A DNA stretch of 64,000 nucleotides, taken from contig JAPPEG010000041.1 in assembly GCA_028875345.1 (NCBI GenBank), positions 874 to 64,873 of the forward strand, given 5' to 3'. The notes beneath the pieces are model-generated. The model was not told the origin of the DNA. It saw nothing but the letters and a program-made list of their open reading frames with translations, and searched no databases. Positions within the stretch are counted from its first letter, which is position 1; every line of letters starts with the position of its first letter. Position numbers and translations under genes: made by a program. The stretch is from Gemmatimonadota bacterium (GTDB taxonomy: Bacteria > Latescibacterota > UBA2968 > UBA8231). Of the stretch, positions 12,811-41,949 are shown one piece after another.

Positions 12811-12893
12811 ATAGGGATTAAAAATCGGGCATGGAGCGAAAGAATGTCAAGCTCTTATACCTACGACTATGAAAACGTAACCAGCTAGCGACC

Positions 12894-13916: not shown

Positions 13917-13932
13917 CGAGAAAGGAAGTAAT

Positions 13933-14759: not shown

Positions 14760-15263
14760 TTAAAGCCCTAAAATCTCGCGCGTTCTTCGCGGCAGCGCGC
14801 GCCAATTGGCGATTAGATAGCGGTTGCCATCGACATCCTCAATGACGGCCCGGCTGCCGGAGAGCATGCGCACATTGGTGCGATAGCCGCGGATTTCGAG
14901 TTGACGGGGGCCGCTGGTGGTTTCGATCTGACCGCGCAGCACCCCGAATTCCTCATCGAGGCTATTGAAAGCGAGGACCTGCGGTTGAAAGTATATCTTG
15001 TCGAGTTCGTCTCGTAGTGCTTGGCGGCTTTGGTCGTCGAGCTGCTGCGGGTCTTCGATTATGCCGAGTTCTTGATCTTCAGCGGCAAAGACGCCGATGT
15101 AGCGGTCGGATTCTTCTAGTGGGAAGGCGCGACGGACCTTAAGGTCGGTGTACTCCTCGCCATCGAGCTCGAGGAGCAAACTGCCGCGCTCGGAGCGGCT
15201 GAAGCGCACCTTTTGCGGGTCGAGCAGAACATCCTCGTACGAATAACTGGGTGTCTCGCTCAT
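14760..15263 (-). CDS. DUF1854-like protein coupled to the upstream ABC exporter
   Basis: 167 aa, with a 4-nt overlap with the ABC gene. Sequence pattern (RRAFPL..., ...VIEDVDGNRYLI...) is as remembered for DUF1854, from memory only. Confidence 0.65.
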   Translation of the reverse strand: MSETPSYSYEDVLLDPQKVRFSRSERGSLLLELDGEEYTDLKVRRAFPLEESDRYIGVFAAEDQELGIIEDPQQLDDQSRQALRDELDKIYFQPQVLAFNSLDEEFGVLRGQIETTSGPRQLEIRGYRTNVRMLSGSRAVIEDVDGNRYLIANWRALPRRTREILGL

Positions 15264-20994: not shown

Positions 20995-23169
20995 TCAATC
21001 GCTCGGCAATGTTGATCCCAGTGGAATGGCTTGTCCCGCTTCCATCACCGCGCCGACCTCGCCGCACAGCCGCTCTTTGAGCGTAGTGTAACGCTGGGCG
21101 ACCTTGTCGTTGGCAATGGCCAGCTTGAGGGCCTTGGGGGTGCCGACGATGACAATCATTTGCTTGGCGCGGGTAATCGCCGTGTAGAGCAGGTTGCGCT
21201 GGAGCATCACGTAGTGCTGCGTCGTCAGCGGCAGCACTACCACGGGAAATTCCGAACCCTGAGAGCGGTGGATGCTGATGGCGTAGGCGAGGGTTAGCTG
21301 GTCGAGATCGACTTGATCGTACTCCAAGGTGTAGTCAAAGCGCACGTAGAGCACCTGTTTTTCCGCGTCGATCCGCTCGATCGTGCCGATGTCGCCGTTA
21401 AAAACGCCCTTGTCGTAGTTATTTTTGACCTGCATGACCTTGTCGCCCACCCGGAACTCGGCCCCGCGATGGCTGTGCGCTTGGCCGTGCGGGTTGAGGC
21501 GCTGTTGCAGCCGCTGGTTGAGATTGAGCGCGCCGGTCTCGCCGCGGTACATGGGCGAAAGCACTTGGATGTCGTTGCGCCGATCCCACCTCCGATAGCT
21601 GGGCAGCCGCGTGGCGCACAACTCCTCCACCAGCTCGACCACCCGCTCTGGGTCGCCTTCTTGGATGAAGTAGAAATCCGCAGCTGCGTCGTTCTCGACG
21701 ATGGGCATTTCGCCGCTGTTGATGCGGTGTGCATTGCGGATGATGTGGCTTTTTTGGGCTTGGCGAAAAATCTGCGTCAGGCGCACCACTGGCACTGCGG
21801 CGGAGTCGATGATGTCGCGGAGTACGTTGCCCGGCCCCACTGAGGGCAACTGGTCGATGTCGCCAACTAGCACCAGCCGAGCGTGGTCGGGCAGGGCGCG
21901 CAGGAGCGCGTTCATCAGCACCACGTCGATCATGGAAGCTTCATCGACGATCAGTGCGTCGATTTTAAGGCGGTCGTCGTAGCCCTTTTTAAACTGCCGT
22001 TCGCCCGGCTGAAATCCCAACAGCCGATGAATGGTCTTGGCCTCGCGCCCGCTGGCCTCGCTCAGCCGCTTGGCAGCGCGGCCCGTAGGCGAGCACAGCG
22101 CAACCTTGAGGCCGCCTTCCTCCAACAGGTGCAAGATGCGCCGTGTGACCGTTGTCTTACCAGTGCCAGGTCCGCCAGTCAGCACTAGCACTTTGCTGGT
22201 GGCGACCAGCTCCACGGCCTCTTTTTGTGCCGGAGCCAATTCCAGCTCGTCTTCTGCTTCTGCGGGTACGGCCAATTCTTCGGTCGGCGTGCGCAAAAGC
22301 CGCTTTAGCGACGATGCGGCACCTACTTCGGCGCGGTGGAGTGGCGGCAGATAGTAGTGTAGGTCTTCGGTGACCACGCCGTCGTTGGCGCGCAGGGCTT
22401 CTAATGCTTGCGGCAACAACTCGGCGTTGATCTCCAAAATTTCGACAGCCCGCTCCATCATTTCGACGGCTGGCAGGTACACGTGGCCTTCGTCAGCCGC
22501 TTCGGAGAGCAGGTAGCGGATGCCAGCTTGCACGCGCTCGGGTGCATCGCGGCCCAGGCCCAAGCGCTGGGCAATGCGGTCGGCGATGCGGAAGCCGATC
22601 CCATCCACGTCGCGCTCTAGGCGATAGGGATCGCTGCGCACCTTCTGAATAGCCTCTTGGCCGTAGGTCTTGAAAATTTTCACTGCGTAGCCGGTGGTAA
22701 TCCCGTGCGACTGCAAAAAGACCATCACGTCCTTGATTTGCCGCTGCTCGTCCCAAGCCGCGGCAATCAGCTCGACTCTCTTTTTGCCTAGCTTGGGCAC
22801 TTCCTCTAGCCGTTGGGGATCCGCGTCGATGATGTCGAGCGTTTCCGCGCCAAAGTGCTCGACGATGCGCTTGGCCGACCGCGGCCCGACCCCTTTGATC
22901 AAACCGGACCCGAGGTACTTTTGTATGCCTTCAAGGGTCGAGGGATAAACGGCCTTATAGTGCTCTACTTTGAATTGTTTGCCGTATTTGGGATGATTGG
23001 TCCACACGCCTGCGACTTCGACGCTTTCACCCTCTTGGATAGAGGCAAGCGTCCCCACGATTGCGATCCGCTCGCGCTGGCCCTCTACTACTAAGCGCGC
23101 AATGGTATAGCCGTTTTCCGGGTTGTGGTAGGTCAGGCGATCTATAAAGCCCTTATACGATTGGTTCAT
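20995..23169 (-). CDS. recD2: RecD2-type (RecD/TraA family) ATP-dependent DNA helicase
   Basis: 724 aa. The N-terminus is typical of RecD2. Walker A LTGGPGTGKTT, DEASM, and a C-terminal AISIHRSQGSEF motif. Confidence 0.9.
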   Translation of the reverse strand: MNQSYKGFIDRLTYHNPENGYTIARLVVEGQRERIAIVGTLASIQEGESVEVAGVWTNHPKYGKQFKVEHYKAVYPSTLEGIQKYLGSGLIKGVGPRSAKRIVEHFGAETLDIIDADPQRLEEVPKLGKKRVELIAAAWDEQRQIKDVMVFLQSHGITTGYAVKIFKTYGQEAIQKVRSDPYRLERDVDGIGFRIADRIAQRLGLGRDAPERVQAGIRYLLSEAADEGHVYLPAVEMMERAVEILEINAELLPQALEALRANDGVVTEDLHYYLPPLHRAEVGAASSLKRLLRTPTEELAVPAEAEDELELAPAQKEAVELVATSKVLVLTGGPGTGKTTVTRRILHLLEEGGLKVALCSPTGRAAKRLSEASGREAKTIHRLLGFQPGERQFKKGYDDRLKIDALIVDEASMIDVVLMNALLRALPDHARLVLVGDIDQLPSVGPGNVLRDIIDSAAVPVVRLTQIFRQAQKSHIIRNAHRINSGEMPIVENDAAADFYFIQEGDPERVVELVEELCATRLPSYRRWDRRNDIQVLSPMYRGETGALNLNQRLQQRLNPHGQAHSHRGAEFRVGDKVMQVKNNYDKGVFNGDIGTIERIDAEKQVLYVRFDYTLEYDQVDLDQLTLAYAISIHRSQGSEFPVVVLPLTTQHYVMLQRNLLYTAITRAKQMIVIVGTPKALKLAIANDKVAQRYTTLKERLCGEVGAVMEAGQAIPLGSTLPSD

Positions 23170-23178
23170 GTGCTGCGC

Positions 23179-23799
23179 TCACCATATGAAAGCACTGTAC
23201 AGCAGGGCCATACTCCCCGCGCCCAGCGCACCGCCCGCGCCGATCTGCATGGGGGTATGCGCCCCCAAATAAAGCCGCGCCCAAGCGACGGCCGGCCAAC
23301 TGAGTAAGAAGGGCCACGCCGCGCTACCGACGCTGATCAACAATACGCAGGTTGCCCCTCCGACACCAGCCGCGTGAATGCTGATCTTATAGAAGCGATT
23401 GATCGACCAGACCAAGAGCGTATTGACGACACAGGACGCGGCCGTGACCAGCATTAGGGGAGGGGCTCCGATCCCGTAGAGGGCTGCTCCTCCTAGGGTG
23501 TAGCAACAAGCGCCCAGCAAGAGCAAGGTAGCGCGTTTGTTGCGGTCGTCTGTATAGGCTTTGTCCAGATACCCCGAGCGCACAAAGTGCCAGAGAAGCA
23601 ACCCGGGGACCACAGAGAAGGCACCGACCGCCACTGAGCCGGCGAGCCAGTCGCCTAGCACGTGCGCTTGAACGCCGAAGACCAACAGCGCCAACAGCGC
23701 GGGATTGAGCAAGTGCGAAAGGAAGCATGCGGCTCGGTGCGGATGCAGACTAAAAAAGGGACGAGCTAATTGCTCGCCCCTCGTTATTTCTTTTGCCAT
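23179..23799 (-). CDS. polytopic membrane protein, PAP2-superfamily-like (motifs partly degenerate)
   Basis: 206 aa. KISIHAAG (compare PSGH) and ARLYLGAHTPMQIGAG (compare SRxxxxxHxxxD, with D replaced by Q). Confidence 0.5.
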   Translation of the reverse strand: MAKEITRGEQLARPFFSLHPHRAACFLSHLLNPALLALLVFGVQAHVLGDWLAGSVAVGAFSVVPGLLLWHFVRSGYLDKAYTDDRNKRATLLLLGACCYTLGGAALYGIGAPPLMLVTAASCVVNTLLVWSINRFYKISIHAAGVGGATCVLLISVGSAAWPFLLSWPAVAWARLYLGAHTPMQIGAGGALGAGSMALLYSAFIW

Positions 23800-24215
23800 T
23801 TTTTTCCGCTGGCCGCGCCGCGACTAGGTGGCCTCTTATCACCCTCTAGCACGAAGCCGATAAAGCGCTTTTGTCCAAGGGTCTTCAAATACTGGAGCAG
23901 GGAGACCTCGGCCTCCTTGCGATTGAGCTGGTATTTGTCGCTGAGCTCTTCGATCATATTGCCGACTGAGTTGCGGCCATTGCACATCCGCCAGACCTCG
24001 CTGCCGACCTCGTCGAGGGTGATTTTGCGCTGTTTGGGGATGTAGAAAAACTTGGACAGCAGCCGCACCCTCCAGGTCTCTTGGCGCGTTATGAAGACCT
24101 GGATCTCGCCGTTGTCGTTGTTTTCCCAGCGCAGAGACTCATTGCGCGTTGGCCGCGACGCCAGCATGGCGACCCGGCTTAGCTTGGGTCCCTTGTTTTT
24201 CGATAAAATGCCCAT
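23784..24215 (-). CDS. PqqD-family (RiPP-recognition-element-like) small protein
   Basis: 143 aa. The core LDEVGSEVWRMCNGRNSVGNMIEELSDKYQLNRKEAEVSLLQYLKTLGQKRFI matches the PqqD winged-helix pattern. An AAGG lies 6 nt upstream of the ATG at 24215. An alternative start is at 24167. Confidence 0.65.
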   Translation of the reverse strand: MGILSKNKGPKLSRVAMLASRPTRNESLRWENNDNGEIQVFITRQETWRVRLLSKFFYIPKQRKITLDEVGSEVWRMCNGRNSVGNMIEELSDKYQLNRKEAEVSLLQYLKTLGQKRFIGFVLEGDKRPPSRGAASGKKWQKK

Positions 24216-25131
24216 CTACTACCTTGGCGACTAGCTCGTCTGCTGCGTCTTTCTTGCGGTAGAGGTGCTCGATGATTGCGATTTTGTCGATGCTGGTATC
24301 GCGCCAGACGCGCCCCCGCATATATAGGCGCGGCCTCGGGTTTATAAAGGGCAGAGGACGCAGTAGCTGACGCCAGCGGCTGCGCGGTCGTCCCTCAACG
24401 CGAATGCCCTCGTGTTCCCGCACGGCTTCTGGAGTAATATCCACCACGAAGTCGCGCAATTGCTTCTTAAAAAAAACCGGATACCAGTCTTGGATGGGCG
24501 CGTCTTTGAGCATAATCCGGGCCATGCTCAACCGATGCACCTTTAAAACTTGTTTGCCGAGGGAAAACTCGAGCTCGATGTGGCCCGACTTGAGGGAATG
24601 GCTTTGTAGCTTGAGGTCGCTGGGTGCAAAAAACCGCAAGCCGTACACGCTCCACAGATGCGCGTCCTCAGCTTCTTGATCGACGAGCGAGCTGAACACG
24701 GCCTCGGCTTGCTCGGGCAAAAACTCGTCTAGCTTGGCCAGCACTCGCAGGAGCACTACCCGCCCGGATCCCAAGGCGAGCGCTAGATTGTATGCGCGGA
24801 AGTCGGCCTCCCAGATGAAGACCTCGTATTCGCGGCCTTCGAGGAACTTCTTGTTTTTGAGGAAGCGAGCGCGGCGCTGGACCTCAAAGGGAGCATCGAC
24901 CTTTTGGGCCTTCTTTTGCAGATTGGCCAAGTAGCGATCTACCAACTCGGTCAGGCGCAGGGCCTCGCCGCGGCCTTTGAGCCGCCGCCATTCGATTTCA
25001 GCACGCACGATTTCGGCGTCGTCGAGGCGGGCATAGCCCTTTTCAAAGTCCCCGTCAACTCGGCCGAGGTTCCAATCGTCGGGCACGGACATCCGCAGCC
25101 CTTGCCAAGCGAAGTCCACCCAGTCGCTCAT
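24139..25131 (-). CDS. hypothetical soluble protein, Cys-free, internally duplicated
   Basis: 330 aa, with the start 1 nt after the upstream stop. Two related modules: FAWQGLRMSVPDDWNL... and WSVYGLRFFAPSDLKL... No family recognised. Confidence 0.7.
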   Translation of the reverse strand: MSDWVDFAWQGLRMSVPDDWNLGRVDGDFEKGYARLDDAEIVRAEIEWRRLKGRGEALRLTELVDRYLANLQKKAQKVDAPFEVQRRARFLKNKKFLEGREYEVFIWEADFRAYNLALALGSGRVVLLRVLAKLDEFLPEQAEAVFSSLVDQEAEDAHLWSVYGLRFFAPSDLKLQSHSLKSGHIELEFSLGKQVLKVHRLSMARIMLKDAPIQDWYPVFFKKQLRDFVVDITPEAVREHEGIRVEGRPRSRWRQLLRPLPFINPRPRLYMRGRVWRDTSIDKIAIIEHLYRKKDAADELVAKVVDGHFIEKQGTQAKPGRHAGVAANAQ

Positions 25132-25132
25132 G

Positions 25133-27559
25133 CTAGAAGATCAACACGGAGACCGATTTCTGGATCAGGGCGATCCCCACCGACGCCATACCCATCAACG
25201 CCATACCGCAAGCGAAGCCCACCGCCAGAACCGGGGCAAACAGCCGCCATTCCTGCCGCCCGTACTTGTTCCAAAAGTAGTAGCGAGCCAAGAGCGCACC
25301 GATGATCTCGGTGACGACCAAGTGCGGCAGAATCGTCAGCGAGCGCACGAACCCAAAGATCAACAAGATCGGTAGCCCGAGTATGGATAGCAGAATGAAG
25401 CTCACCAGCCCGAAGCCGGCCCCAAAGGCGATGACTTCTAGTTTCAGCGCCCTAAAGAGCCAAGGCACGTCGGTGGAGCGCTGGATCCAAGAGCTGGTAA
25501 AGAGCGGATCGGTATCGACCTCAAAGTAGAAGGACCATCCGGCCGGTACAGCTCGCTCGGTCTGCACTTCGAGGGTTGGGCGGGGTTCGCGAATGACGGT
25601 GTCCATAGCTGGCCCCAGTGGCGCAATCGCCGGCAGGCCCTCGACCACTTCCTCTTCGGCTAGCTGCTCGTCGCGCAGGTAGCGCTCGGCGACTATGTCG
25701 GGTGCCCCTTGCTCGAAGTACGAGTAGAAAACTTGGGTCGGCATCCACGGGCCGACTTGGCCGCGCTTGCCGTTGGAGTCCAGCCACTCCTGATCCACTA
25801 GCCGCACCCGCCAGTACCACCACTCGTTTTCGATCAGGTTTGCCGGAGTCCATCCCGCTTGATCTTTGTCTATGGCCAGTTCGCTGCGCATGGTGCCGGT
25901 GATAAAGAGACATTGCTGGTAAGCGCGCAGACGCCACATGAGCTGGGCATAGGGGTAAGAGGCCGACGGGATCGGTGCTAGTTTCCAGATATAGGAGCCG
26001 TAGAGAAAACTGGTAAAGAGCACGATGGGTACCATGAAAATCTCGGCGCGGATGATGCTGGTAAACTGGGTGCCGGTCAATTCGATTTCGCGGAACTTCT
26101 GGGTCTGGGCACCGTAGTTGCCCAAGGGAAACGGAATGAACCAGATGTCAACACCGCGATACCCAGAAAGAATAATCGTGGCCTCGCGCACGAAGGGAAC
26201 GTCCACCGTCTGCCCTACCATCCCGACTAGGCGAGCGTTGACGAAGGACTGAAAGGGCGTGAATACGAAACCAAAGAAGAGGAAGAACCATATAAATTGG
26301 GCAATGCCCGGCAGCAGCCAAGCGGCGATGCCGATCAGGCCGGCCGTGGCCAAGGCGTATAGTGCCAACGCCACCCAGATGGGGAAATCGCCGCGGCCAG
26401 CGGGGGTGGCGAAGCCGCGCTTGGGACTGCCATCATTCCCGTTGCCCTTGTTAGCCCTAGCCCTGCGCACGCTCTGAACTATCTGGTAGATGCCGATGGC
26501 GGCGATGGCAAAGGTAGTGCCGAGGCCGAAGCTCATCCAGAAATCGACGTAGTTGACGAAATAGGTCTCGATCGTGCCCATGCCTTGCTGCCACAAGTTC
26601 AGGTACGGCTCCTCGCGCCACGAAGGCGTCCAGGTATAGAGCAGCGGATTGGCAACGGCGGCGGCGACTAGACCGATGAAGGTGCCAACCACGCCCCAGA
26701 ACGGCACCACTAGACCGACGAAGATCGGCCCCAAGTGCGCGGTAAATCCCAGCGGAGTGGCCGGGATAAAGTTGCCGGTAACTTGCGTGAAGTCGACAAA
26801 GGGAATGGGTATGAGTTGGATCGGCTCGGTCAGCAGCGCGCCAGTAATCGCCGGTAGGGCCACGTAGATCGTGCCAAAGACCAAGCCGATCATCGCCCCT
26901 GCCGAGAATACCCGCCAGCGCCACGTCTCAAGTCCTTGGGTAGTTTCGGCCAGTGCCGTAGCACCTTGGGCGTTTACGGGCGCGAAGGGAAAGGGCAGGC
27001 GCTCGTAGTCGGAGCTGAGCCGGAAGAGCGCGTACGACATAGTGAACCAGTTGATGCGCGAGATGATCATCCCCAAGACTAGGAGTACGATCGGCATCGC
27101 CCAATCCGAGTGCAGGAAGGTGCGCTCAATGACGGCGAGAGAGTCGGGTTGGGGTGCCACCCAAGTGGGAATCAGCTTGGTGATGCCGAACTGCTTGGCC
27201 GCTGGCGATTGCACCAAGTACTGGTTGTAGAGCAAGCCCTCAAAGGCACCGGTTTCAGCGGCAATCAGCGAGCCGGCCACGTAGAACAGCACATAGACTT
27301 CTTGGCGCCGGAGGGAGGAGAAGGAACGCTTGGTGATTTCGGCGAAGAGGATGATGGTCACCCACTCGGCCGCCGCCCCCAAAGAGCCGCCGATCATCAG
27401 GCTCAAGTACATGTTGCCCGGCACCATGATGAAGGCGACGAAGAACACGCCGAGGATGGCCTTGATCGTAAAGCCGTTCTCGAAGCGGTCCGGGACCTGC
27501 ATTAAATCCCGATATTCTTCGATCTCTCGGTTCGGGTTTCTGTTTTTGCTTCCGAGCAC
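25133..27559 (-). CDS. large polytopic membrane protein (808 aa), OPT-superfamily-like
   Basis: GTG start preceded by GGGAGG. Many hydrophobic segments. The N-terminus FTIKAILGVFFVAFIMVPGNMYLSLMIGGSLGAAAEW resembles oligopeptide-transporter (OPT) N-termini. A ~170-aa soluble insert lies near the C-terminus. Confidence 0.75.
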   Translation of the reverse strand: MLGSKNRNPNREIEEYRDLMQVPDRFENGFTIKAILGVFFVAFIMVPGNMYLSLMIGGSLGAAAEWVTIILFAEITKRSFSSLRRQEVYVLFYVAGSLIAAETGAFEGLLYNQYLVQSPAAKQFGITKLIPTWVAPQPDSLAVIERTFLHSDWAMPIVLLVLGMIISRINWFTMSYALFRLSSDYERLPFPFAPVNAQGATALAETTQGLETWRWRVFSAGAMIGLVFGTIYVALPAITGALLTEPIQLIPIPFVDFTQVTGNFIPATPLGFTAHLGPIFVGLVVPFWGVVGTFIGLVAAAVANPLLYTWTPSWREEPYLNLWQQGMGTIETYFVNYVDFWMSFGLGTTFAIAAIGIYQIVQSVRRARANKGNGNDGSPKRGFATPAGRGDFPIWVALALYALATAGLIGIAAWLLPGIAQFIWFFLFFGFVFTPFQSFVNARLVGMVGQTVDVPFVREATIILSGYRGVDIWFIPFPLGNYGAQTQKFREIELTGTQFTSIIRAEIFMVPIVLFTSFLYGSYIWKLAPIPSASYPYAQLMWRLRAYQQCLFITGTMRSELAIDKDQAGWTPANLIENEWWYWRVRLVDQEWLDSNGKRGQVGPWMPTQVFYSYFEQGAPDIVAERYLRDEQLAEEEVVEGLPAIAPLGPAMDTVIREPRPTLEVQTERAVPAGWSFYFEVDTDPLFTSSWIQRSTDVPWLFRALKLEVIAFGAGFGLVSFILLSILGLPILLIFGFVRSLTILPHLVVTEIIGALLARYYFWNKYGRQEWRLFAPVLAVGFACGMALMGMASVGIALIQKSVSVLIF

Positions 27560-27572
27560 TCGCTATCCTCCC

Positions 27573-30500: not shown

Positions 30501-32324
30501 TGCACGCGGCAAGTCGGGGATGATGCTGCGGCGCGGAAAGACCATGGTCCGACCACGCAGCGAGCGCAGCGTGTCGCGCAAGCGCATCTTGAAGTCCGGG
30601 AACAGCTCTGGGTCTTCAAAGGCCATCTCGAACATGCCGGCGAGCACCCGGATCTGTTTGGCGAGATTGGCGTAGTTGACGTGCTCAGCCCGGTCTAAGG
30701 GCGTATCGACGAGGAATCGCGCGTCGTTGACAGTGACAAAGGCCAATGCCGGCGTACCAGTCGCCAATACCAATTCGCTGTTGACCGATATTTCGCCTGG
30801 TACAAAAGTCTGCCAACTCATCCCGCCTTCGGGGCTGATACCATTGACTAGCACGTCGCGCTGCTGATAATCCAACTCGCGGCTGATCTTGCGCGCATAC
30901 CCCATGAAGTTCTTGCCGAAGGGCGCGAAGTAGCGCTTGTAGTAAAAGCTGGTATTGCTATTCCACACTCCGAGTTCGTCGGTTTGCGACGAAAGGTCGA
31001 GGCTGATAAAGAGCTTGACCGCGAGCGAATCGACTTTGGGATCGACCCAAGTTTTGTAGAGCGCGTGGCGCAAGTCGTCGTCCGAGCGCAAGTCGTCAAC
31101 CAGTTCGCGGCGATCTTTGAATTGCTCGTCGGCGAGGTGTAATGCGCCTCCTTCTTGGCTCAGCAGCCCTTCGGCAAGGGCAGCGTCGGCAACGCGCGAG
31201 ACCAAGTCGGTGTGCCCTTCGGCAACGCCCCGCACGAGGGCTTCCTTACTGGTGAACTCCTCCTCGCCGATGGCGTAGTGGATGCCGTCTTGGGCGATCA
31301 TGTTCCGCGCGAGTGCAGCATCGACGACCCGCCTCACCAGCATGTGCTCGATAAAGGGATCCTCTTTGCGCAAATAGCGTTGGATGAAATCATCAATCCC
31401 GCGCAAGCCCAAGTGGTGGGCCGAAGTGGCGAGAAATACGACCGTGCGCGCCGGTGGATTTTCGCGGAAGTAGCGCGCCAGTTCCAACAGCGCAGTAATG
31501 CCGGAGGCTTGCTCGGCACCTGGGGCGAGGGCCGGCACGACTGACATGGCGTCGTAGTACGCTTCCAGCACGATCACGTCCTCTTTTAGCAAGGGATCGT
31601 ATCCGGGGATCGTGCCGAGGATATTCCAGGCGGGACGCCGCTCCCAATCCATGCGGTACTGTAGGTGGAGCGTCTGCTCGCCCTCGGTCGCCAATTGGCG
31701 GCGCAAGCGCTGACCGACTTGGCGATTGACCCAAAACCTCGGCAGGTCGAGCGGCATGGTGAGGAACTTCTTTTCGCCCTCCAAGTACACGGTGGAGTCC
31801 GGCTCGATAAAGATGATAGCTTGCGCCCCGAGGTAGGCGGCATTGAGCCAGGCGTCGCCCGAATTGAAGTCCATCAGGGCCACAGCCCCTTCGACTTGCT
31901 TGCCGTCCATGTCTGCGTACTCACCCGCGCCAGCGTCGATCAAGCGCTTGGTCACCCCGTCTTCGGGCAGCGTCGAGGTTTTGACGAGGTTGGGCCACAG
32001 GCCGTGGATTGGCACTTGCTCGTCGCTGCCAACGACTTGCAGAAATCCGCCCTTATCGACCGGAATAGAGACATCGTATTCGTGTACTGTGACGTCGTCG
32101 AGGCCGATGGCACGGAAGCGCTCCTGCACGATCTGGGCCGCTTGGTCGGCACCTCGATAGCCGGCGACTCTAGACCCCAAGCCGGCAAAGGTGTCCATCG
32201 TTTGCTGCACGCGCTCGACCGGGGCCGTGCGCGCCAACTCGGCAAAATCGACTTCGGTCCAAGCCGGTGCTACGCCGACCAGAATCCAGCCGAAGGCTAT
32301 CCATCGCATCGCGAACTTAGGCAT
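27573..32324 (-). CDS. 1583-aa fusion protein: signal/anchor + PA/M28-like pseudo-peptidase ectodomain + 3 TM + FtsX/MacB-type permease + C-terminal domain
   Basis: ORF 27573..32504 is trimmed to the ATG at 32324 (MPKFAMRWIAFGWILVGVAPAW); the longer form overlaps the upstream gene. M28-like motifs have substituted ligands: EAYYDAMS, PGAEQASGITALLELAR, FLATSAHHLGLRG. FtsX hallmarks are ISNMKRRKTRTVLTF (TM1) and FREIGIYSSVGLAPGHISWLFIAES. Confidence 0.8.
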   Translation of the reverse strand: MPKFAMRWIAFGWILVGVAPAWTEVDFAELARTAPVERVQQTMDTFAGLGSRVAGYRGADQAAQIVQERFRAIGLDDVTVHEYDVSIPVDKGGFLQVVGSDEQVPIHGLWPNLVKTSTLPEDGVTKRLIDAGAGEYADMDGKQVEGAVALMDFNSGDAWLNAAYLGAQAIIFIEPDSTVYLEGEKKFLTMPLDLPRFWVNRQVGQRLRRQLATEGEQTLHLQYRMDWERRPAWNILGTIPGYDPLLKEDVIVLEAYYDAMSVVPALAPGAEQASGITALLELARYFRENPPARTVVFLATSAHHLGLRGIDDFIQRYLRKEDPFIEHMLVRRVVDAALARNMIAQDGIHYAIGEEEFTSKEALVRGVAEGHTDLVSRVADAALAEGLLSQEGGALHLADEQFKDRRELVDDLRSDDDLRHALYKTWVDPKVDSLAVKLFISLDLSSQTDELGVWNSNTSFYYKRYFAPFGKNFMGYARKISRELDYQQRDVLVNGISPEGGMSWQTFVPGEISVNSELVLATGTPALAFVTVNDARFLVDTPLDRAEHVNYANLAKQIRVLAGMFEMAFEDPELFPDFKMRLRDTLRSLRGRTMVFPRRSIIPDLPRADAVAVVRNGKKKSYKGVRGEYYEVVDDKGAFYVNRVRVNNVQIEGYYMDPITGRITYAPDRGVQGDESYPMRVSMDWRDKQWMVILFPCVPYNFFDIVDPRYLTKLSNVQVFDETNGPPVEYGYTIGEGPSAQNEPVGVLFARPGSHIKMGFGAGLLGFRSLLLNATSVTDKEKAEGEGFEIRPGTSFARTTFQAAQDMWNLDESRMRELRSFAIENQRLNDLHYRAETELAQAAAAETDQRWGDFVRHTRAAFGLESRAYPDVKSTQNDVIQGIIFFMALVIPCAFFTERLIFTAATIRNQIIGFAGVFLAIWIVLWLVHPAFQLSNPFVILLAFIIIALAVLVMSIISGRFNEQMKKLRTEVAVIHDTDVSRSSASLTAFQLGISNMKRRKTRTVLTFTTLLLLTFTVLSFTSIRTGLRFNQISRDNEGLYEGILIRSKAWNPMEDSVLEYARSNFGDRAAVAPRSWYSNKAKAHIKIKHGEKAHNALGVLGLAPEETLVTRLNQALVAGRWFEPGEDKACILPIDMVKEAHLDVDLADVGQAQVRVFGDLFTVVGVIDSKRMKDLKDLDDEILTPADFAVTGGQAVQEIAEEEQREKQGLEDAKVVIKPFVHIEPANTLIIPYHTLRNVGSGNPLQSVAVRFPEGSDVRGEVEEFLSRLAVTLFAGVKEVGDEYIKVSIYSSLGMTSFSGMSNLFIPMLIASLIVLNTMMGSVYERFREIGIYSSVGLAPGHISWLFIAESCVYSVLGVVAGYLSGQVIAKVLIEFDLLGGFTLNYSSVAAVLSCMLVMAVVMLSTIYPARKASQMAVPDVTRKWKLPPPDGDQWDFEFPFTVSGHEVLGLSVFLIGYFDSYSEESIGTFYTDGAQLSREETPNGEGYIIDMNIWLAPFDLGVSQHVTVRAMPEAEHNIYAVSLQIKRLSGEDASWRRVNQRFMNVIRKQFLIWRTVDAEAKEGYRQQGAEILQGLRSEVSA

Positions 32325-32338
32325 AGTTAGTGCCTTTC

Positions 32339-34294
32339 TCAGATCCAGAAGACCACATTGTCGGTCATGCCCGTAAAAAAGTCGATAATCAACCAGAGCC
32401 CCGCGATGAAAAACTGGCCTATGATTAAGCCTAAAAAGAAAGGACGCGCCCGGCGAAAAAGACCAGGACCGCCGTATTTCATCGCCAACAACTTTAAGAG
32501 CCAAGCGATGGCAATGCTAAACCATAACTGGTCCATCAGCCATACGGCACCAATCGGGTAGCCGATGGGATGCAGAGGCCACCACAAGAGCCGCTGGCGT
32601 GCCCACATGAGCAGGGCCATGATGCCCCCGCCGACAAAAGTGTGAATCCAGCCATCGATATTCGGCTCGGTGGGTGCGCTTAACTTGGTGGTAATATAAT
32701 CAAAAGGGGCACGAGTTCCACCTCCAAAAAACCACGGGTTGAGGTTGATGCCGCCGTATTCGTAGGCGAGGTACAAAATCGTCGCGACCGAGCCGACGAT
32801 GCTAACAACAATCGCCAGCAGTATGTACCAAAAAAGCGGGCGCAGCCGCGGCCCTAGTCCCTCACCCAACTTGAGACCGTGTGCGCAGGAGGCCATGACA
32901 AAGGTGCGGATATCCGCCGCCCACACGAATGTGTATGCGAGGCCGACTATGCCGGCCGGGCCGATCGCCGAAGAGCCTACGGCCGAAACCAGGACCGTTG
33001 GAGAAATCATCGGCCCGACCGCCGCGGCCACGCCTCCTTCTACTACCACTCGAGTTAGGCCGACGAAGATAAGGATGGCCAGCATCAGGGTCAAAAAGGC
33101 CGCCCACAGCGGCAAGCCAGACTGCCACAGCCAGATGGTCATTACTGCGATGCCGGAGAGCCAAGTTAAGACCGCTACCCGATAGGAGAGCATCTCGCCG
33201 CTGTCGTCGATGCGGTTGTCGCCCCGGAATGCCTTGCGCAGCACGTCGCGCAGGTGCTCGCGGCCGACCCACAGGCCGAAGGCCACTAGGACGATCATCG
33301 CGCCCTGTCCCTGATGGGCGAGGATCGGCTCGCTAGCAGCGCCGTAAACGAGCTTTTCAGTGCTGCCAACCCCTAAAACTCCCAGCCCTCCTCGGATCAA
33401 CTTGGCGATGGTGTTGAAAAACCACAGGCTGAAGGCGATGTCGAGGTTGATCAGATACGCGAACCCGATCATGGGAAAGCTCAGGCGGAAAATCAGGCTG
33501 ACGGTGTTGCGCAGGATCGGAATCGAAGAGACGAGCTGGATGGCGGGGATGAAGTTGAAGTACGCGTGTAGGGCGTTGAAACTACTGACGAGTACGGGCA
33601 GGGCAAAGCCGACCCACATGATTGGATTTTTGAAGAAAGGGCCTAGGGCTTCTCCGCGGCCTCCGCTCTGCACCATGGCCAGGGGCACTTGCACCAGCGG
33701 ATAAACTAGCCGCTCTCGCTCTACCCACTGGCGGCGCATAATGACCATAGACGAGATCATCACCAAGTACAGGGCTACAATCAGAATGGCCCAATAGCAC
33801 AGCGGGCCGCTCCAGGCGGCCCAGGGCACCCCAGTGGTGCGCGGCGCTCCTTCGTAAAACCACTTGATCGCTTCGGGATCCTGCGGGGCGATCCACTCGG
33901 GAAGGTGCGGCAGGATGAGCAAGGCCCACTCGTTTTCCGGGGTGGCGTAGTACTGGGCACCGGTGATGATCGTCAGCCAGTACTCACTGAGGCCCATCGT
34001 GGGGATGGCCGAGGCCGTGAGCATCATAATGTACGCGACGATAAGCTCGCAACGCCCGAGGGCCACAGGAGCGGCGAAGCGCGTCAGCAAGGCATTGAAC
34101 AAGCCCGTTAGCAAGAAGAAGAGAAACAGGGCACCCGCTGCGCTGAAATCAATCGACATGTAGGAGCCGCGGATGACCATGTTGCCGTACGGTGCTCCCA
34201 CGGCGATGCACAGCGACCCTAGGGTGCCCGCCACCAGCGCTTTGGCGCTGAAGACCGGCTTGGTTTGCAAAGTAGGCTTTTGGGGCAAGTCCAT
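32339..34294 (-). CDS. large polytopic membrane protein (651 aa), OPT-superfamily-like; distant paralogue of the 808-aa protein
   Basis: Strongly hydrophobic throughout. N-terminus FSAKALVAGTLGSLCIAVGAPYGNMVIRGS. The C-terminus LLKLLAMKYGGPGLFRRARPFFLGLIIG resembles the C-terminus of the 808-aa protein. Confidence 0.75.
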   Translation of the reverse strand: MDLPQKPTLQTKPVFSAKALVAGTLGSLCIAVGAPYGNMVIRGSYMSIDFSAAGALFLFFLLTGLFNALLTRFAAPVALGRCELIVAYIMMLTASAIPTMGLSEYWLTIITGAQYYATPENEWALLILPHLPEWIAPQDPEAIKWFYEGAPRTTGVPWAAWSGPLCYWAILIVALYLVMISSMVIMRRQWVERERLVYPLVQVPLAMVQSGGRGEALGPFFKNPIMWVGFALPVLVSSFNALHAYFNFIPAIQLVSSIPILRNTVSLIFRLSFPMIGFAYLINLDIAFSLWFFNTIAKLIRGGLGVLGVGSTEKLVYGAASEPILAHQGQGAMIVLVAFGLWVGREHLRDVLRKAFRGDNRIDDSGEMLSYRVAVLTWLSGIAVMTIWLWQSGLPLWAAFLTLMLAILIFVGLTRVVVEGGVAAAVGPMISPTVLVSAVGSSAIGPAGIVGLAYTFVWAADIRTFVMASCAHGLKLGEGLGPRLRPLFWYILLAIVVSIVGSVATILYLAYEYGGINLNPWFFGGGTRAPFDYITTKLSAPTEPNIDGWIHTFVGGGIMALLMWARQRLLWWPLHPIGYPIGAVWLMDQLWFSIAIAWLLKLLAMKYGGPGLFRRARPFFLGLIIGQFFIAGLWLIIDFFTGMTDNVVFWI

Positions 34295-34318
34295 TGAAAC
34301 GATCTAAAGTTCATGCAT

Positions 34319-34843
34319 TTATAACTGACCTTGGTCCAACCAGCCTATTTTCGCCAATTGTTCCAAGGTCCACCAAGCCAACAGGCCGATCGCCCCTCCG
34401 CTCACCAAAGCGCTGAACAAGGCCAGCGGCAAAAGCGCGAATAGACCGCTGTGGCCGATGTAGCCAGCGGCGAGAACGAGCTGGCTGAGTTGGTGCGTCA
34501 ACGCACCCCAGATGCTCAGACCCACAACGCTGAAAAGTCGCGCTCCCATGCGGCGCACCGCAACCATGACCAACCAACTCGCCAAGCCAGCCCCGCCGCC
34601 AATGACAAAGGCCGGACCGGCAAATCCCCCGCTGAGCAAGCCGCCGACTACCAGCTTGATGGCACTAACGGCCAATGCCGGGCCGCCGCCAAAGCTCACT
34701 AGCGCGACTAAAACCGGTAAATTGCCGAGTCCCAACTTCATCCAAGGCAAGGGTTTGGGTACCAGCGATTCAAAGGTGAAGAGTACAATTGCCGCACTGG
34801 CCATAAGCCCCAAACGGGCCACGTCTCTAGGGCGCGCAAACAT
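34319..34843 (-). CDS. Gx transporter family protein (Hpre_diP_synt_I-like small membrane protein)
   Basis: The start at 34843 (MFARPRDVARLGL...) overlaps the upstream stop by 1 nt. Carries LGLGNLPVLVAL...GGLLSGGF...G motifs typical of the family. Confidence 0.75.
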   Translation of the reverse strand: MFARPRDVARLGLMASAAIVLFTFESLVPKPLPWMKLGLGNLPVLVALVSFGGGPALAVSAIKLVVGGLLSGGFAGPAFVIGGGAGLASWLVMVAVRRMGARLFSVVGLSIWGALTHQLSQLVLAAGYIGHSGLFALLPLALFSALVSGGAIGLLAWWTLEQLAKIGWLDQGQL

Positions 34844-35232
34844 CAGTGAATCATCGCGTCTATGGGCGCGGCCCCAGCGATCCTCAGCACTAGGCCATTG
34901 GGCACGCACGCGGCCACGTCGCCTGCCCGCTGCATCCAGCCCCGCCGCATGCAAATTTTGTGGATGCAGGGTGCGGAAAGCACCCGCACCCCCTTGGGGC
35001 CGATCTCGATCTGGCTCGCGCCCAAAGGTCCTACAACCGGCAAGACTCCGTAGTTGGAGAGGGCATGCATGGCAGGCGTGTCTCCGGCCAACTCGACGAT
35101 GAGTACGCCGCCAGCTTCGGCTGTATAGCGGCCGTAGAGTATCAGCCCGATCGCACTCAAGCCCACGACGAGTGCGAGGATTTTATCTGCTCGCGTCAGC
35201 GCCGGTGCGTTTTCGGTATTTAGCCACCACAT
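34843..35232 (-). CDS. NusG domain II-containing (DUF1312-like) membrane-anchored protein
   Basis: 129 aa with an N-terminal TM helix and a small beta-domain containing PCIHKICMRRGW. It is the usual partner of Gx transporter genes. Confidence 0.7.
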   Translation of the reverse strand: MWWLNTENAPALTRADKILALVVGLSAIGLILYGRYTAEAGGVLIVELAGDTPAMHALSNYGVLPVVGPLGASQIEIGPKGVRVLSAPCIHKICMRRGWMQRAGDVAACVPNGLVLRIAGAAPIDAMIH

Positions 35233-35321
35233 CCTGAGTCCTTTTCTCTTCCCATTTAATTTAACTTCTACTACGCGTGCAAACGAGCGAGAAACTTCTG
35301 CTTGTATGTACTTGTTTTTTT

Positions 35322-35350
35322 TTTATATGCTTGTTTATATTGACGGGCAA
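35322..35350 (-). promoter_or_regulatory. candidate sigma70-type promoter of the nine-gene operon (TTGCCC-17-TATAAA on minus strand)
   Basis: Read on the reverse complement of the AT-rich 125-nt divergent region between relA and the NusG-II gene. Confidence 0.3.
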
Positions 35351-41237: not shown

Positions 41238-41251
41238 ATGGCAATTGCCAT
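41238..41251. promoter_or_regulatory. perfect 14-nt palindrome ATGGCAATTGCCAT upstream of the LTD gene (possible operator)
   Basis: Read directly from the sequence, 24 nt upstream of the ATG at 41275. Confidence 0.25.
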
Positions 41252-41274
41252 CTCACCCCAACCTGGAGGCTGCC

Positions 41275-41949
41275 ATGCGTCCTTTTATTGCCTTTATCTT
41301 TTTTGCTCTCGCCGCACCTGTCGCGGCCCAACCCGGCCCAGTCGTCATATCCGAGTTGATGTGGTCGGGTAGTACGGCATCTACTGCCGACGAGTGGATC
41401 GAACTCTACAACGCCAGCAATGCGGCGATTGATCTGGTCGGCTGGACTTTGATCTACCGCAGCGGCGACGAGGACAAGGTTATGTTCGTGCTTGACGCTG
41501 CGGTGATCCCCGCCGGACAGACCTTTCTCATCGCTAACTACGCTGCCAATCACAAAAACTCCCTCCTCGCCGTCGAGCCTCAGCGCGTTGATGCCGCCGT
41601 TTCGCTGCCCAATACCAAGCTGCTCTTACAGCTATACGATGGCGACCCGCAAGCTGGGGGCCAGCTCATCGACGTAGCCGACGATGGCCGCGGGGCCCCT
41701 TTCGCCGGTGACTCAGCCAGCAAAAGCTCCATGGTGCGCATCGCCTTTGACCAGCCCGGCGACCAGCCCGAAAGCTGGGCGACTGCGACCGAACAAAGCG
41801 GCTGGGATGCGGGTGCCAGCGAGTTGGGTACGCCGGGATCCATTCCTGCGTACCTGCTCCCGGAAGGGGGTGAAGCGCCCGAGCCCGTCGTGGGAACGAA
41901 CATTTTACCGATGTCTTGGGCTTCAGTAAAAGGGCATCTATATCCGTAG
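41275..41949 (+). CDS. secreted lamin-tail-domain (LTD) protein
   Basis: Signal peptide MRPFIAFIFFALAAPVAAQ, then ISELMWSGS...DEWIELYNASNAAIDLVGWTL, typical of LTD. Confidence 0.75.
   Translation: MRPFIAFIFFALAAPVAAQPGPVVISELMWSGSTASTADEWIELYNASNAAIDLVGWTLIYRSGDEDKVMFVLDAAVIPAGQTFLIANYAANHKNSLLAVEPQRVDAAVSLPNTKLLLQLYDGDPQAGGQLIDVADDGRGAPFAGDSASKSSMVRIAFDQPGDQPESWATATEQSGWDAGASELGTPGSIPAYLLPEGGEAPEPVVGTNILPMSWASVKGHLYP

Follow-up and report, generated by a model that had tools for sequence, protein, structure and literature searches.

A giant MacB/FtsX-type permease and OPT-like membrane proteins as tentative parts of one machine in several uncultured bacterial phyla

Five consecutive genes (g3 to g7) of the window, by which the complete 64-kb stretch of DNA analysed here is meant, possibly encode a membrane machine that has not been described before and is found again in several phyla of uncultured bacteria, a joint reading to which only tentative confidence is attached. 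The genes lie within a run of nine minus-strand open reading frames (g1 to g9), which the original prediction had regarded as one operon. All nine reading frames were found where they had been placed, and almost all of the earlier domain calls, including those for g1, g2, g4, g7 and g9, were borne out by Pfam and NCBIfam searches. The region contains the following features:

35322 to 35350, minus strand: promoter-like site TTGCCC-N17-TATAAA upstream of g1, read from the sequence, a weak candidate only
34843 to 35232, minus strand: g1, membrane-anchored NusG_II-domain protein, 129 aa (PF07009, 56.8 bits; one N-terminal TM)
34319 to 34843, minus strand: g2, Gx transporter / Hpre_diP_synt_I membrane protein, 174 aa (PF07456, 110.7 bits)
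32339 to 34294, minus strand: g3, DUF6785+DUF6784 polytopic membrane protein, 651 aa (PF20581, 412.7 bits; PF20580, 107.5 bits)
27573 to 32324, minus strand: g4, giant permease, 1583 aa (Pfam FtsX 56.8, M28 38.0 and MacB_PCD 29.1 bits; TM map)
30555 to 32237, minus strand: g4, predicted PA + M28 aminopeptidase fold, residues ~30-590 (AF2 pLDDT 78.5, pTM 0.78)
28074 to 29315, minus strand: g4, MacB/LolC/FtsX-type four-TM module with periplasmic core domain, residues ~1004-1417 (Pfam, PDB, PADLOC)
27576 to 28067, minus strand: g4, cytoplasmic C-terminal domain, residues 1420-1583 (conserved to homologues of 27-29% whole-protein identity)
25133 to 27559, minus strand: g5, divergent OPT-superfamily polytopic membrane protein, 808 aa (family-level OPT matches)
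24139 to 25131, minus strand: g6, cytoplasmic protein of two predicted tandem Mog1/PsbP-like domains, 330 aa (AF2 pLDDT 86, pTM 0.81; no TM)
23784 to 24215, minus strand: g7, PqqD-like (RRE-type) cytoplasmic protein, 143 aa (PF05402, 41.9 bits)
23750 to 23782, minus strand: intrinsic-terminator-like hairpin, 11-bp stem, 5-nt loop, U6 (dG -24.4 kcal/mol, z -4.2)
20995 to 23799, minus strand: g8, membrane protein of 206 aa with a weak PAP2 match, and g9, RecD2 helicase (Pfam/NCBIfam)

On re-reading the sequence, each of the junctions given previously matched exactly. The genes g1 and g2 overlap by 1 nt (TGATG), gaps of 24, 14, 13 and 1 nt follow at g2-g3, g3-g4, g4-g5 and g5-g6, g6 and g7 overlap by 77 nt (29 nt with an internal ATG as g7 start), g7 and g8 overlap by 16 nt, and 9 nt separate g8 from g9. 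The long start of g7 is supported because the identity to the Poribacteria orthologue (40%) begins at residue 4; identity to the counterpart at locus L090, a 'Lentisphaerae'-labelled MAG, is 31%. The share of sequence encoding membrane or periplasmic protein, estimated at about 11 kb, was recounted as about 10.7 kb of the region. A sigma70-like promoter had been proposed upstream of g1. While the motif is present, it was not listed by a consensus scan, which returned six promoter-like sites compared to 4.9 in shuffled sequence and thus no excess, though the consensus used may not be that of the phylum. For g8, a PAP2 match exists, but its score of 19.6 bits is below the cut-off of 27.2, while g9 was identified as RecD2 by TIGR01448 (904 bits).

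The nine-gene operon, by contrast, could not be upheld. Internal hairpin terminators had been reported as missing, yet a hairpin with a GC-rich stem (23782 to 23756, minus strand) begins 2 nt past the g7 stop, and hairpins occupy the same position at L092, L002 and L003, i.e. at four Latescibacterota loci including the window; between the window and L092, one paired G:C to A:U change was detected. This hairpin is the probable 3' end of the unit. At L002-L004 and L092, g7 is separated from the PAP2-like and RecD2 genes by an oppositely oriented flagellin gene. Due to the conserved terminator and the intervening flagellin gene, g8 and g9 are, as judged from these comparisons, an adjacent separate unit outside the system. 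The predicted g8 start precedes the hairpin and is therefore uncertain. Upstream of g4 or g3, g1 and g2 occur in the window, L002-L004 and L092, and they are absent from Poribacteria, L087, L090 and L091. The pair thus appears to be a lineage-specific neighbour module outside the conserved core, accompanying it in part of Latescibacterota only. Moreover, g3 is absent from the Latescibacterota loci L002-L004.

Synteny of the remaining genes had been proposed as a test, with the 1583-aa and 330-aa proteins as queries, and the core was indeed found to co-occur in Latescibacterota, Poribacteria and the Lentisphaerae-labelled MAG. A g5-like gene directly follows a g4-like gene in every informative locus sampled, which amounts to seven lineages or contigs, each independent of the others (window, L002-4, L005/Poribacteria, L087, L088, L089, L090, L091). 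At the five loci of distinct lineages with checked gene calls (window, L003, L087, L090, L091), the two are separated by 3-13 nt or overlap slightly, and the adjacency is kept down to 27-29% protein identity. Among 80 Poribacteria loci, 74 contain g4 and g5, 69 contain g4 to g7 and 63 contain g4 to g7 together with a LolD/MacB-like ATPase. In the three lineages named above, g6 and g7 accompany g4 and g5, with the g4-g5-g6-g7 set of L090 in a different gene order. They were found neither beside the g4-g5 pairs of L087, L088 and L091 nor at loci of a g4 paralogue with g3 (L001, L050 and others), and are therefore not obligatory. Within the phylum, the identities of g4 (57-98%) and g5 (66-98%) suggest strong purifying selection. 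From this pattern we infer a physical association of g4, g5, g3, g6 and g7. It is decidedly unlikely that the genes are merely neighbours co-inherited within related phyla whose products each act alone, g4 as an orphan FtsX-like protein, g3 and g5 as OPT-type peptide importers and g6 and g7 as small cytoplasmic proteins. Such independence would agree with the dispensability of g3, g6 and g7 each at some loci and with the lack of an ATPase in the window, and the arrangement common to Latescibacterota and Poribacteria might be shared by descent. However, the g4-g5 adjacency extends to strongly diverged proteins with short or overlapping junctions wherever checked, the surrounding genes differ completely from lineage to lineage, and L090 possesses the same five families plus ATPases reordered, an indication that selection, and not inertia, maintains the membership.

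The N-terminal part of g4 comprises a signal/anchor, a periplasmic PA-M28 fold, a beta-rich domain, a helical bundle and about three TM segments. It is followed by a MacB-type module (TM1, periplasmic core domain, FtsX TM2-4) and the cytoplasmic domain. Sequence matches in the PDB were MacB (5lil, E 6e-10), YtrF and LolC, and the Poribacteria homologues are 41% identical. According to the AF2 model, the PA-M28 fold is complete with an inserted repeat at residues ~320-430, and Foldseek related this head to BSAP/YwaD (6hc6, 2ek8), PaAP, transferrin receptor and GCPII (E 1e-14 to 4e-20). In the M28 motifs, HHD is changed to YYD, GA(N)D to GAE and EE to HH. The canonical zinc and catalytic residues are thus replaced by others, and these are invariant from phylum to phylum. 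Since the substituted site could yet bind metal, the designation 'pseudo-peptidase' stays putative.

The combination of an FtsX/MacB-type module with a peptidase fold whose catalytic residues are replaced recalls EnvC, whose LytM domain is catalytically dead (PMC7668044). In analogy to FtsEX-EnvC, an ATP-driven FtsX-type permease could move the dead peptidase-fold head, which would bind peptidoglycan stem peptides or activate their hydrolysis, and OPT-like channels would take up the freed peptides for recycling. This is doubtful, even though the Poribacteria head contains LysM (38 bits, Pfam cut-off 20.9) and the near-universal, apparently single-copy occurrence in the retrieved Poribacteria loci together with high conservation suggests a housekeeping envelope role. 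LysM was detected by Pfam in Poribacteria only and not in the window protein, and the FtsX equivalog model gave 24.8 bits on g4 compared to a cut-off of 250. At no locus was an amidase, EnvC-like, Mur or division gene linked; the window has MurC-like and GT2 genes 4-6 kb upstream, without synteny elsewhere. Furthermore, we know of no M28 enzyme acting as a cell-wall hydrolase, and cell-wall remodelling would leave the cytoplasmic g6 and g7 without a role.

PADLOC model PDLC01991 ('CARF_m8--CARF_LolE_TM') matched g4 (192 bits) and its homologues in Poribacteria and L091. That g4 is a signal-regulated or defence-associated effector with a CARF-like sensor ('CARF_m8') switched by a nucleotide second messenger is nevertheless highly improbable. 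The profile aligns to g4 over its TM, periplasmic and FtsX parts, while the cytoplasmic C-terminal domain alone gave no Pfam, PADLOC or PDB sequence match. Neither a CRISPR array nor a defence gene (cas, cyclase or other) occurs in the window or related loci, and conservation and genomic context resemble those of a housekeeping system.

FtsX-type permeases require an ABC ATPase, which was overlooked in the earlier reading. No partner ATPase is encoded in the window, where the sole match (29% identity) lies inside an unrelated ABC exporter (15260 to 17551), nor within 10 kb of the L002-L004 and L092 loci. In other lineages, a LolD/MacB-like ATPase is encoded inside the cluster. These ATPases scored best against LolD, MacB, DevA and FtsE models and also matched darobactin and bacteriocin exporter models. 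A MacAB-TolC-type efflux pump was rejected because membrane-fusion and outer-membrane-factor genes are absent from all loci examined. The view that no characterised system corresponds to these genes was confirmed for the set and for its conserved core (Pfam, NCBIfam, PADLOC, PDB, literature), the literature search yielding no publication on a g3-g7 system; named families exist for the flanking g1, g2 and g9.

Both large membrane proteins had been called OPT-like, which agrees with the DUF6785/DUF6784 assignment of g3 and with family-level evidence for g5. While g5 itself had no direct Pfam match reaching threshold, 12 of 39 aligned members of its family (951 representatives) matched PF03169 OPT (best E 1e-17), and hhalign related the g3 and g5 families with 98.8% probability (E 5e-17, 580 columns). 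By sequence, g3 is a g5 paralogue within the OPT superfamily, and as a channel-like protein it would be a second, optional partner of g4; it is paired with g4-like genes at L001, L050/54/59/60/76, L087, L091 and L092. In g5, a loop insert of ~140 aa was located at residues ~560-700, and the g5 loop of homologue P0362 contains a PDZ domain. It is conceivable that the OPT-like proteins are scaffolds instead of channels.

The description of g6 as a duplicated soluble protein was substantiated by the AF2 model with its tandem halves. Foldseek matches comprised TplEi/Tli4 (E 5e-6), PsbP, Mog1, Eag/SciW and Tsi3 and no enzyme fold; g6 is probably adaptor- or chaperone-like. Homologues occur in Poribacteria (27% identity, E 1e-36) and L090 (hhalign 83%). 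PqqD/RRE domains of known systems bind precursor peptides. One might thus envisage a machine exporting and processing a peptide or protein (RiPP/bacteriocin-like, or a secreted or membrane protein), whose precursor would be captured by g7 and g6, moved outward through the OPT-like channel, the MacB-type permease or both, and trimmed or released by the M28-like head. The predicted resemblance of g6 to Eag/SciW chaperones, which hold hydrophobic effector segments, the RRE type of g7, the exporter-model matches of the ATPases and a J-domain protein with a CesT-like chaperone behind g5 at L091 point in this direction. Export is still unlikely: the NCBIfam lasso and PQQ chaperone models matched g7 weakly, far under the RiPP-chaperone cut-offs, none of more than 90 loci encodes a precursor peptide or a modifying enzyme such as a radical SAM protein, a cyclodehydratase or a B2 protease, and conservation level and breadth are atypical of natural-product clusters. 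In addition, every characterised OPT transporter is, to our knowledge, an importer. A Poribacteria ORF of 58 aa was considered as precursor peptide and rejected, being a conserved two-TM membrane protein.

Our preferred, though still tentative, reading is that g3 to g7 and an ABC ATPase encoded elsewhere in the genome form one MacB/LolCE/FtsX ('type VII', mechanotransmission) machine that handles peptides via OPT-like channels. A g4 dimer and the ATPase would convert ATP hydrolysis into motion of the periplasmic head. This head, a receptor or re-tooled peptidase, would bind ends of periplasmic peptides or polypeptides and pass them to the adjoining OPT-like channel(s), while g6 and g7 may bind a peptide or the g4 C-terminal domain on the cytoplasmic side. 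The original suggestion of peptide handling is compatible with the folds found, and the peptide-binding themes, i.e. the PqqD domain, the Mog1/PsbP/Eag-like fold, the PDZ domain of P0362 and the Poribacteria LysM, count in its favour. Among the genes at the loci examined, none for a substrate, a partner peptidase or a regulator was detected that would indicate the direction; direction and substrate are inferred. Since the characterised OPT transporters, as far as known, all act as importers, import is favoured, so that the machine would serve the capture and uptake of peptides, which may derive from the cell wall or from proteins in the environment.

Nine open reading frames on the minus strand of the window extend from 35232 down to 20995, at coordinates identical to those of the original prediction. 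Its junctions were likewise reproduced from the sequence: a 1-nt overlap (TGATG at g1/g2), gaps of 24, 14, 13 and 1 nt, overlaps of 77 and 16 nt, and a gap of 9 nt. The 77-nt overlap of g6 and g7 is reduced to 29 nt if an internal ATG is used. GC content is even over the region (0.58-0.61), and the best protein matches all belong to MAGs of Candidatus Latescibacteria/Latescibacterota, some of which are labelled Gemmatimonadetes or Handelsmanbacteria; the window is thus assigned to this phylum.

Genes at 35232 down to 20995, minus strand, with length and family matches
g1, minus strand, 129 aa: NusG_II domain, one N-terminal TM segment
g2, minus strand, 174 aa: Hpre_diP_synt_I / Gx transporter
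g3, minus strand, 651 aa: OPT-like; DUF6785 (413 bits) and DUF6784 (108 bits)
g4, minus strand, 1583 aa: giant M28/PA-FtsX permease; Peptidase_M28 (partial), MacB_PCD (marginal), FtsX
g5, minus strand, 808 aa: OPT-like; without a Pfam or NCBIfam family
g6, minus strand, 330 aa: Mog1/PsbP fold; without a Pfam or NCBIfam family
g7, minus strand, 143 aa: PqqD
g8, minus strand, 206 aa: PAP2-like; PAP2 below threshold only
g9, minus strand, 724 aa: RecD2 (TIGR01448, 904 bits)

The nine genes had been regarded as one operon lacking internal terminators. They are indeed co-directional and separated by short or overlapping junctions, but a GC-rich hairpin with an 11-bp stem and a U6 tract (23782-23756; dG -24.4 kcal/mol, z -4.2) starts only 2 nt past the g7 stop codon, and the whole set is not syntenic in relatives. 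Three other Latescibacterota loci (L002, L003 and L004) contain NusG_II, Gx, g4, g5, g6, g7, an opposite-strand flagellin gene, g8 and RecD2, with g3 absent; the closer relative L092 shows this order plus g3, again with flagellin between g7 and g8. GC-rich hairpins followed by a U-tract, differing in sequence, lie 3' of g7 in the window, L092, L002 and L003, and the stems of the window and L092 differ by one paired G:C to A:U change. Due to the hairpin and the intervening flagellin gene of the relatives, g8-g9 form a separate unit, which adjoins g7 in the window only through the absence of the flagellin gene. This gene occupies 11462-12625 in L002, 11513-12676 in L003 and 11401-12561 in L092, and is lost in the window (23750-23799). 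The annotated start of g8 (ATG 23799) is situated upstream of the terminator hairpin and the L092 g8 is 19 aa shorter; the g8 start and the transcription of g8-g9 are uncertain. At the other end, g1-g2 accompany the core (g3-g7) only in part of the Latescibacterota, where 24-156 nt separate them from the gene that follows. The transcription unit in the window most likely comprises g1 (or g3) to g7.

As to the predicted promoter at 35322-35350, the elements TTGCCC-N17-TATAAA are present in the sequence, but the site was not listed by a consensus scan and the number of sites in the region does not exceed that in shuffled sequences. An Rfam scan of the window found three tRNAs only, and no riboswitch or leader RNA. 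Downstream, the cluster is bordered by a convergent ThuA-like gene. A RelA/SpoT gene (HD, synthetase, TGS and ACT domains; 35358-37547, plus strand) diverges from the upstream intergenic region; this neighbour also exists in L002 and is absent in L003 and L004.

Comparison of more distant loci narrowed the conserved part further. A deep Latescibacterota lineage (L091) possesses a g3-like gene, a giant FtsX and a g5-like gene; after this trio, genes for a J-domain protein, a CesT/YbjN-like chaperone-fold protein and PspA (12627-14090) replace g6/g7. For Candidatus Poribacteria (the metagenome contig L005 and 80 GTDB loci), the order is g4, a 58-aa protein with two TM segments, g5, g6, g7 and an ABC ATPase. 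Among the best 80 of at least 571 loci confirmed in a scan of a genome collection, all 80 of them from Poribacteria, g4 and g5 occurred together in 74, g4-g7 in 69 and g4-g7 with the ATPase in 63, and the loci without the full set were mostly cut by contig ends. In five of the same 80 loci, the permease gene is a paralogue, g4', and its partner is g3-like. Identity between the window and Poribacteria amounts to 41% for g4, 42% for g5, 27% for g6 and 40% for g7. An 8-Mb genome (L001) harbors two tandem pairs of a g3-like and a g4-like gene. Three other loci show an ATPase, a small FtsX, a giant FtsX, a g5-like and a g3-like gene (L087), a giant FtsX, a g5-like gene, a small FtsX and two ATPases (L088), and a giant FtsX followed by an OPT gene (L089). 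In a MAG labelled 'Lentisphaerae bacterium RIFOXYB12_FULL_65_16' (L090), a g6-like and a PqqD-like gene, FtsX, an ATPase, M28-FtsX, an OPT-like gene and a second ATPase were detected, i.e. the membership of the other clusters in a different gene order. Thus, the invariant element is g4 directly followed by g5. Frequent members beside this pair are g3, g6 together with g7, a second FtsX and one or more ATPases, while the flanking genes are wholly different between lineages.

Several peculiarities of single lineages were also noted. The protein encoded between g4 and g5 of Poribacteria is a conserved two-TM hairpin of 55-65 aa with a GRWQWQ loop and an AHFWEE tail (L005 9809-9985 and 68 other loci); the window, whose g4-g5 gap is 13 nt, has no counterpart. 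On L005, g6 and g7 are separated by an inserted HEPN/nucleotidyltransferase toxin-antitoxin pair (13000-13703). Apart from unrelated metabolic genes, the only other recurrent neighbour in the best 80 of at least 571 Poribacteria loci is an XRE-type HTH gene, located divergently upstream of g4 in 52 of them (e.g. L012 9271-9639, minus strand) and accompanied in 21 of the 52 by an ImmA/IrrE-like M78 gene. This HTH protein is a possible regulator of the Poribacteria cluster. Lamin-tail-domain proteins are encoded in the window (41245-41949), some 6 kb upstream of the cluster, and on L005 after the ATPase (15014-15904); since the latter is not conserved in other Poribacteria loci, their proximity is probably a coincidence.

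To understand the architecture of g4, a hydropathy map was combined with an AF2 model of residues 1-880 (pLDDT 78.5, pTM 0.78). A signal/anchor is followed by a complete PA+M28 aminopeptidase fold (residues ~30-590), a beta-rich domain (~590-780), a three-helix bundle (~796-866), approximately three TM segments, a short basic cytoplasmic linker, a MacB-type module composed of TM1, a periplasmic core domain and FtsX TM2-4, and a cytoplasmic C-terminal domain of 165 aa. Residues ~1004-1417 comprise the FtsX four-TM domain (PF02687, 56.8 bits, cut-off 25.5) with the periplasmic core domain between TM1 and TM2, whose match to MacB_PCD is marginal (PF12704, residues 1004-1190, 29.1 bits vs cut-off 27). 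Compared with PDB chains, the C-terminal half of g4 matched MacB (5lil, E 6e-10), Spr0694-type proteins, YtrF, LolC and LolF; a profile of the C-terminal domain had no match among PDB sequences even at E <= 10. The engine of the cluster is of a known class, the MacB/LolCE/FtsX permeases, and some orthologous clusters resemble LolC/LolE also in adding a second, small FtsX protein. From the type VII ABC proteins MacB, LolCDE and FtsEX, g4 differs by an N-terminal extension of about 1000 residues, which comprises the PA-M28 head, the beta-rich domain, the helical bundle and ~3 TM segments, and by the additional C-terminal domain. Moreover, the locus encodes neither MacA/TolC-type partners nor an ATPase, and its permease is obligatorily paired with OPT-superfamily proteins, an arrangement for which no description was found in the literature searched. 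Membrane-fusion (HlyD/MacA) and outer-membrane-factor Pfam families were absent from the neighbour list of every locus, so that none is a tripartite MacAB-TolC system.

A PADLOC model, PDLC01991 ('CARF_m8--CARF_LolE_TM'), scored 192 bits for g4 and 182-183 bits for the homologues in L005 and L091. The match covers the TM, periplasmic and FtsX parts (window 27573-29450), and the cytoplasmic C-terminal domain alone gave no match to this model. It can be concluded that the family was previously catalogued as bearing a minor CARF-like domain. The related model PDLC01990, whose head is beta-galactosidase-like, matched only the FtsX TM segments. These matches point to a broader family of giant LolE/FtsX proteins whose periplasmic heads are interchangeable and which may include a domain for ligand sensing. 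A CRISPR or defence context was not detected: repeat arrays are absent, and PADLOC recognized only g9, by generic RecD-like models, besides the LolE_TM match of g4.

The head of g4 yielded Foldseek matches (E 1e-14 to 4e-20) to BSAP/YwaD, the Aneurinibacillus aminopeptidase (2ek8), PaAP, the transferrin receptor and GCPII, spanning ~580-690 columns for BSAP, 2ek8, PaAP and GCPII. Against Pfam M28, g4 aligns only in part (38 bits). Compared with YwaD and 2ek8, the motif (A/S)H(Y/H)DS reads AYYDA in g4, GAND reads GA-E and AEE reads AHH; the ligands in the second half were not alignable by sequence. Hence, the first zinc histidine is replaced by tyrosine (AYYD), the bridging aspartate by glutamate (GAEQASG) and the Glu-Glu pair by His-His (SAHHLG), and the canonical M28 zinc ligands and catalytic glutamate are missing at the aligned positions. 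The substituted residues are invariant across Latescibacterota, Poribacteria and the L001 lineage, indicating that the site is re-tooled or non-catalytic, yet under selection. The replacement residues (Y, E, H, H) could still bind metal. The M28 fold itself is split by two repeats of ~45 residues (helix/three strands/helix) at residues ~320-430 (window 31035-31365), where Poribacteria g4 bears an insert of ~700 residues. The transferrin receptor (Foldseek E ~1e-15 to the g4 head), nicastrin and nicalin (weak sequence match) likewise expose a PA+M28 fold with replaced catalytic residues on the outside of a membrane complex; g4 differs from these proteins in being bacterial and fused to an ABC-type permease.

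FtsEX-EnvC and FtsEX-PcsB provide another analogy, an FtsX-type permease tied to a peptidase-fold domain without canonical catalytic residues. By comparison with the inactive peptidase of EnvC, g4 might take part in cell-wall remodelling or recycling, and the LysM domain of the ~2300-aa Poribacteria g4, which scores above the Pfam cut-off, points in the same direction. However, the degenerate fold of g4 is M28/PA instead of LytM/CHAP and is fused to the permease instead of being recruited. Adjacency to ftsE and a division-gene context are missing, there is no ftsE beside g4 in the window, and the FtsX equivalog model NF038346 scored g4 at 24.8 bits with a cut-off of 250. A machine for cell-wall remodelling or recycling is a less probable alternative to one for peptide uptake.

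The constant partner g5 belongs to a large family for which Pfam has no separate entry; an exhaustive HMMER search revealed 951 cluster representatives at 50% identity. Neither g5 nor g3 matches Pfam OPT (PF03169) directly, whereas 12 of 39 aligned members of the g5 family reached its threshold (best E 1e-17). BLASTP detected no similarity between g3 and g5, but profile-profile comparison of the g3 and g5 families by hhalign gave a probability of 98.8% (E 5e-17, 580 columns). The homology of g3 to this family and its OPT-matching members thus justify the label 'OPT-like' given to both genes in the original prediction, by transitivity and at the superfamily level. A search of PDB sequences with the g5-family profile gave no match even at E <= 1. 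Unlike OPT (TC 2.A.67), to which it shows no direct match, g5 contains a loop insert of ~140 aa (residues ~560-700). A 1083-aa homologue encoded at a contig start (P0362; L006 184-3435) bears a PDZ domain in this loop. To our knowledge, known OPT proteins are stand-alone proton symporters that do not occur beside an ABC permease, and those characterised are importers.

Having no TM segments and no obvious signal peptide, g6 and g7 are taken as cytoplasmic. The g6 model (pLDDT 86, pTM 0.81) consists of two Mog1/PsbP-like domains in tandem and does not show an enzyme fold. Over its full length it aligns to the tandem-domain T6SS immunity proteins TplEi/Tli4, and its halves align to PsbP, Mog1, the Eag/SciW chaperones (EagT6, SciW) and Tsi3. 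Sequence identities to TplEi/Tli4, Eag/DUF1795 and PsbP of only 7-15%, with TM-scores of 0.3-0.6, limit this resemblance to the fold level, and the T6SS or photosystem context of such adaptors is missing. For g7, the PqqD score exceeds the Pfam threshold (PF05402, 41.9 bits vs 23.4), whereas NCBIfam models of RiPP chaperones reached 18-31 bits with cut-offs of 46-110. It thus shares the domain of PqqD/RRE proteins, but its conserved partner is a Mog1/PsbP-fold protein instead. The 58-aa Poribacteria ORF between g4 and g5 was considered as a RiPP precursor and rejected, being a two-TM hairpin protein.

An FtsX-type permease needs an ABC ATPase. One or two such genes lie inside the clusters of Poribacteria (63 of the best 80 of at least 571 loci), L087, L088 and L090; the products are 44-64% identical to one another, and their top NCBIfam models are LolD, MacB, DevA and FtsE, with the LolD, MacB and DevA scores all below the cut-offs. 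By contrast, no ATPase of this type was found in the window or in the 10-kb surroundings of the clusters in L002-L004 and L092. In the window, tblastn with the Poribacteria ATPase retrieved only an unrelated ABC exporter (29% identity), and Pfam scans of most other large ORFs (at least 200 aa) revealed no stand-alone ABC_tran domain. The exporter (763 aa; 15260-17551, minus strand) combines ABC_membrane and ABC_tran with a ~180-aa N-terminal extension unassigned by Pfam; it is the sole gene found in the window to contain an ABC ATPase domain and is not a MacB-type partner. Consequently, the ATPase of the Latescibacterota system would have to be encoded elsewhere in the genome.

The original prediction had found no recognisable pathway for these genes. 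The cluster would form a type VII ABC mechanotransmission complex that binds peptides or polypeptides by their ends through its periplasmic head and works together with the OPT-like channels, g6 and g7 presumably serving as cytoplasmic binding or adaptor proteins. As for the direction of peptide transport, uptake is favoured because characterised OPT proteins import; that Poribacteria and Latescibacterota are predicted polymer-degrading heterotrophs may also be cited toward uptake. A role in export or processing, which would suit the PqqD-like protein, is less likely, since the window and the related loci, more than 90 in number, yielded neither a RiPP precursor gene nor a maturation enzyme, and since the pattern of conservation resembles that of a housekeeping system. 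We tentatively propose, at clearly less than even confidence, a new class of envelope machine for ATP-assisted capture of peptides or polypeptides and their translocation across the inner membrane, in which OPT-superfamily channels and cytoplasmic peptide-binding adaptors would be physically coupled to a MacB-type, ATP-driven mechanotransmitter whose M28/PA head resembles a receptor. Such a machine would belong to the core systems of Poribacteria and Latescibacterota and would also occur in further uncultured lineages. There is a real, though less than even, chance that it embodies a distinct transport principle.

Type VII ABC systems (MacB, LolCDE, FtsEX, BceAB) partner periplasmic adaptors, hydrolase activators or kinases. 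In the family libraries and literature searched, no description was found of a fused re-tooled M28/PA head, of constant OPT-superfamily partner(s) of an FtsX-type permease, of a Mog1/PsbP-fold and PqqD-like pair, or of such a permease lacking MacA/TolC-type partners. The literature retrieved does not mention DUF6785/DUF6784, and contains nothing on Poribacteria and FtsX in the relevant sense nor on an FtsX-like permease with M28. With g4, there is a bacterial case of an M28/PA fold re-purposed with different, invariant site residues. If the coupling is physical, an ATP-driven extracytoplasmic 'bellows' would be paired in a new way with a secondary-transporter fold, and DUF6785/DUF6784 and the g5 family with its 951 representatives would obtain their first functional context. 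Poribacteria are sponge-symbiotic and Latescibacterota live in sediment or marine habitats, both being abundant and uncultured; physical coupling would indicate a conserved envelope function in these two groups.
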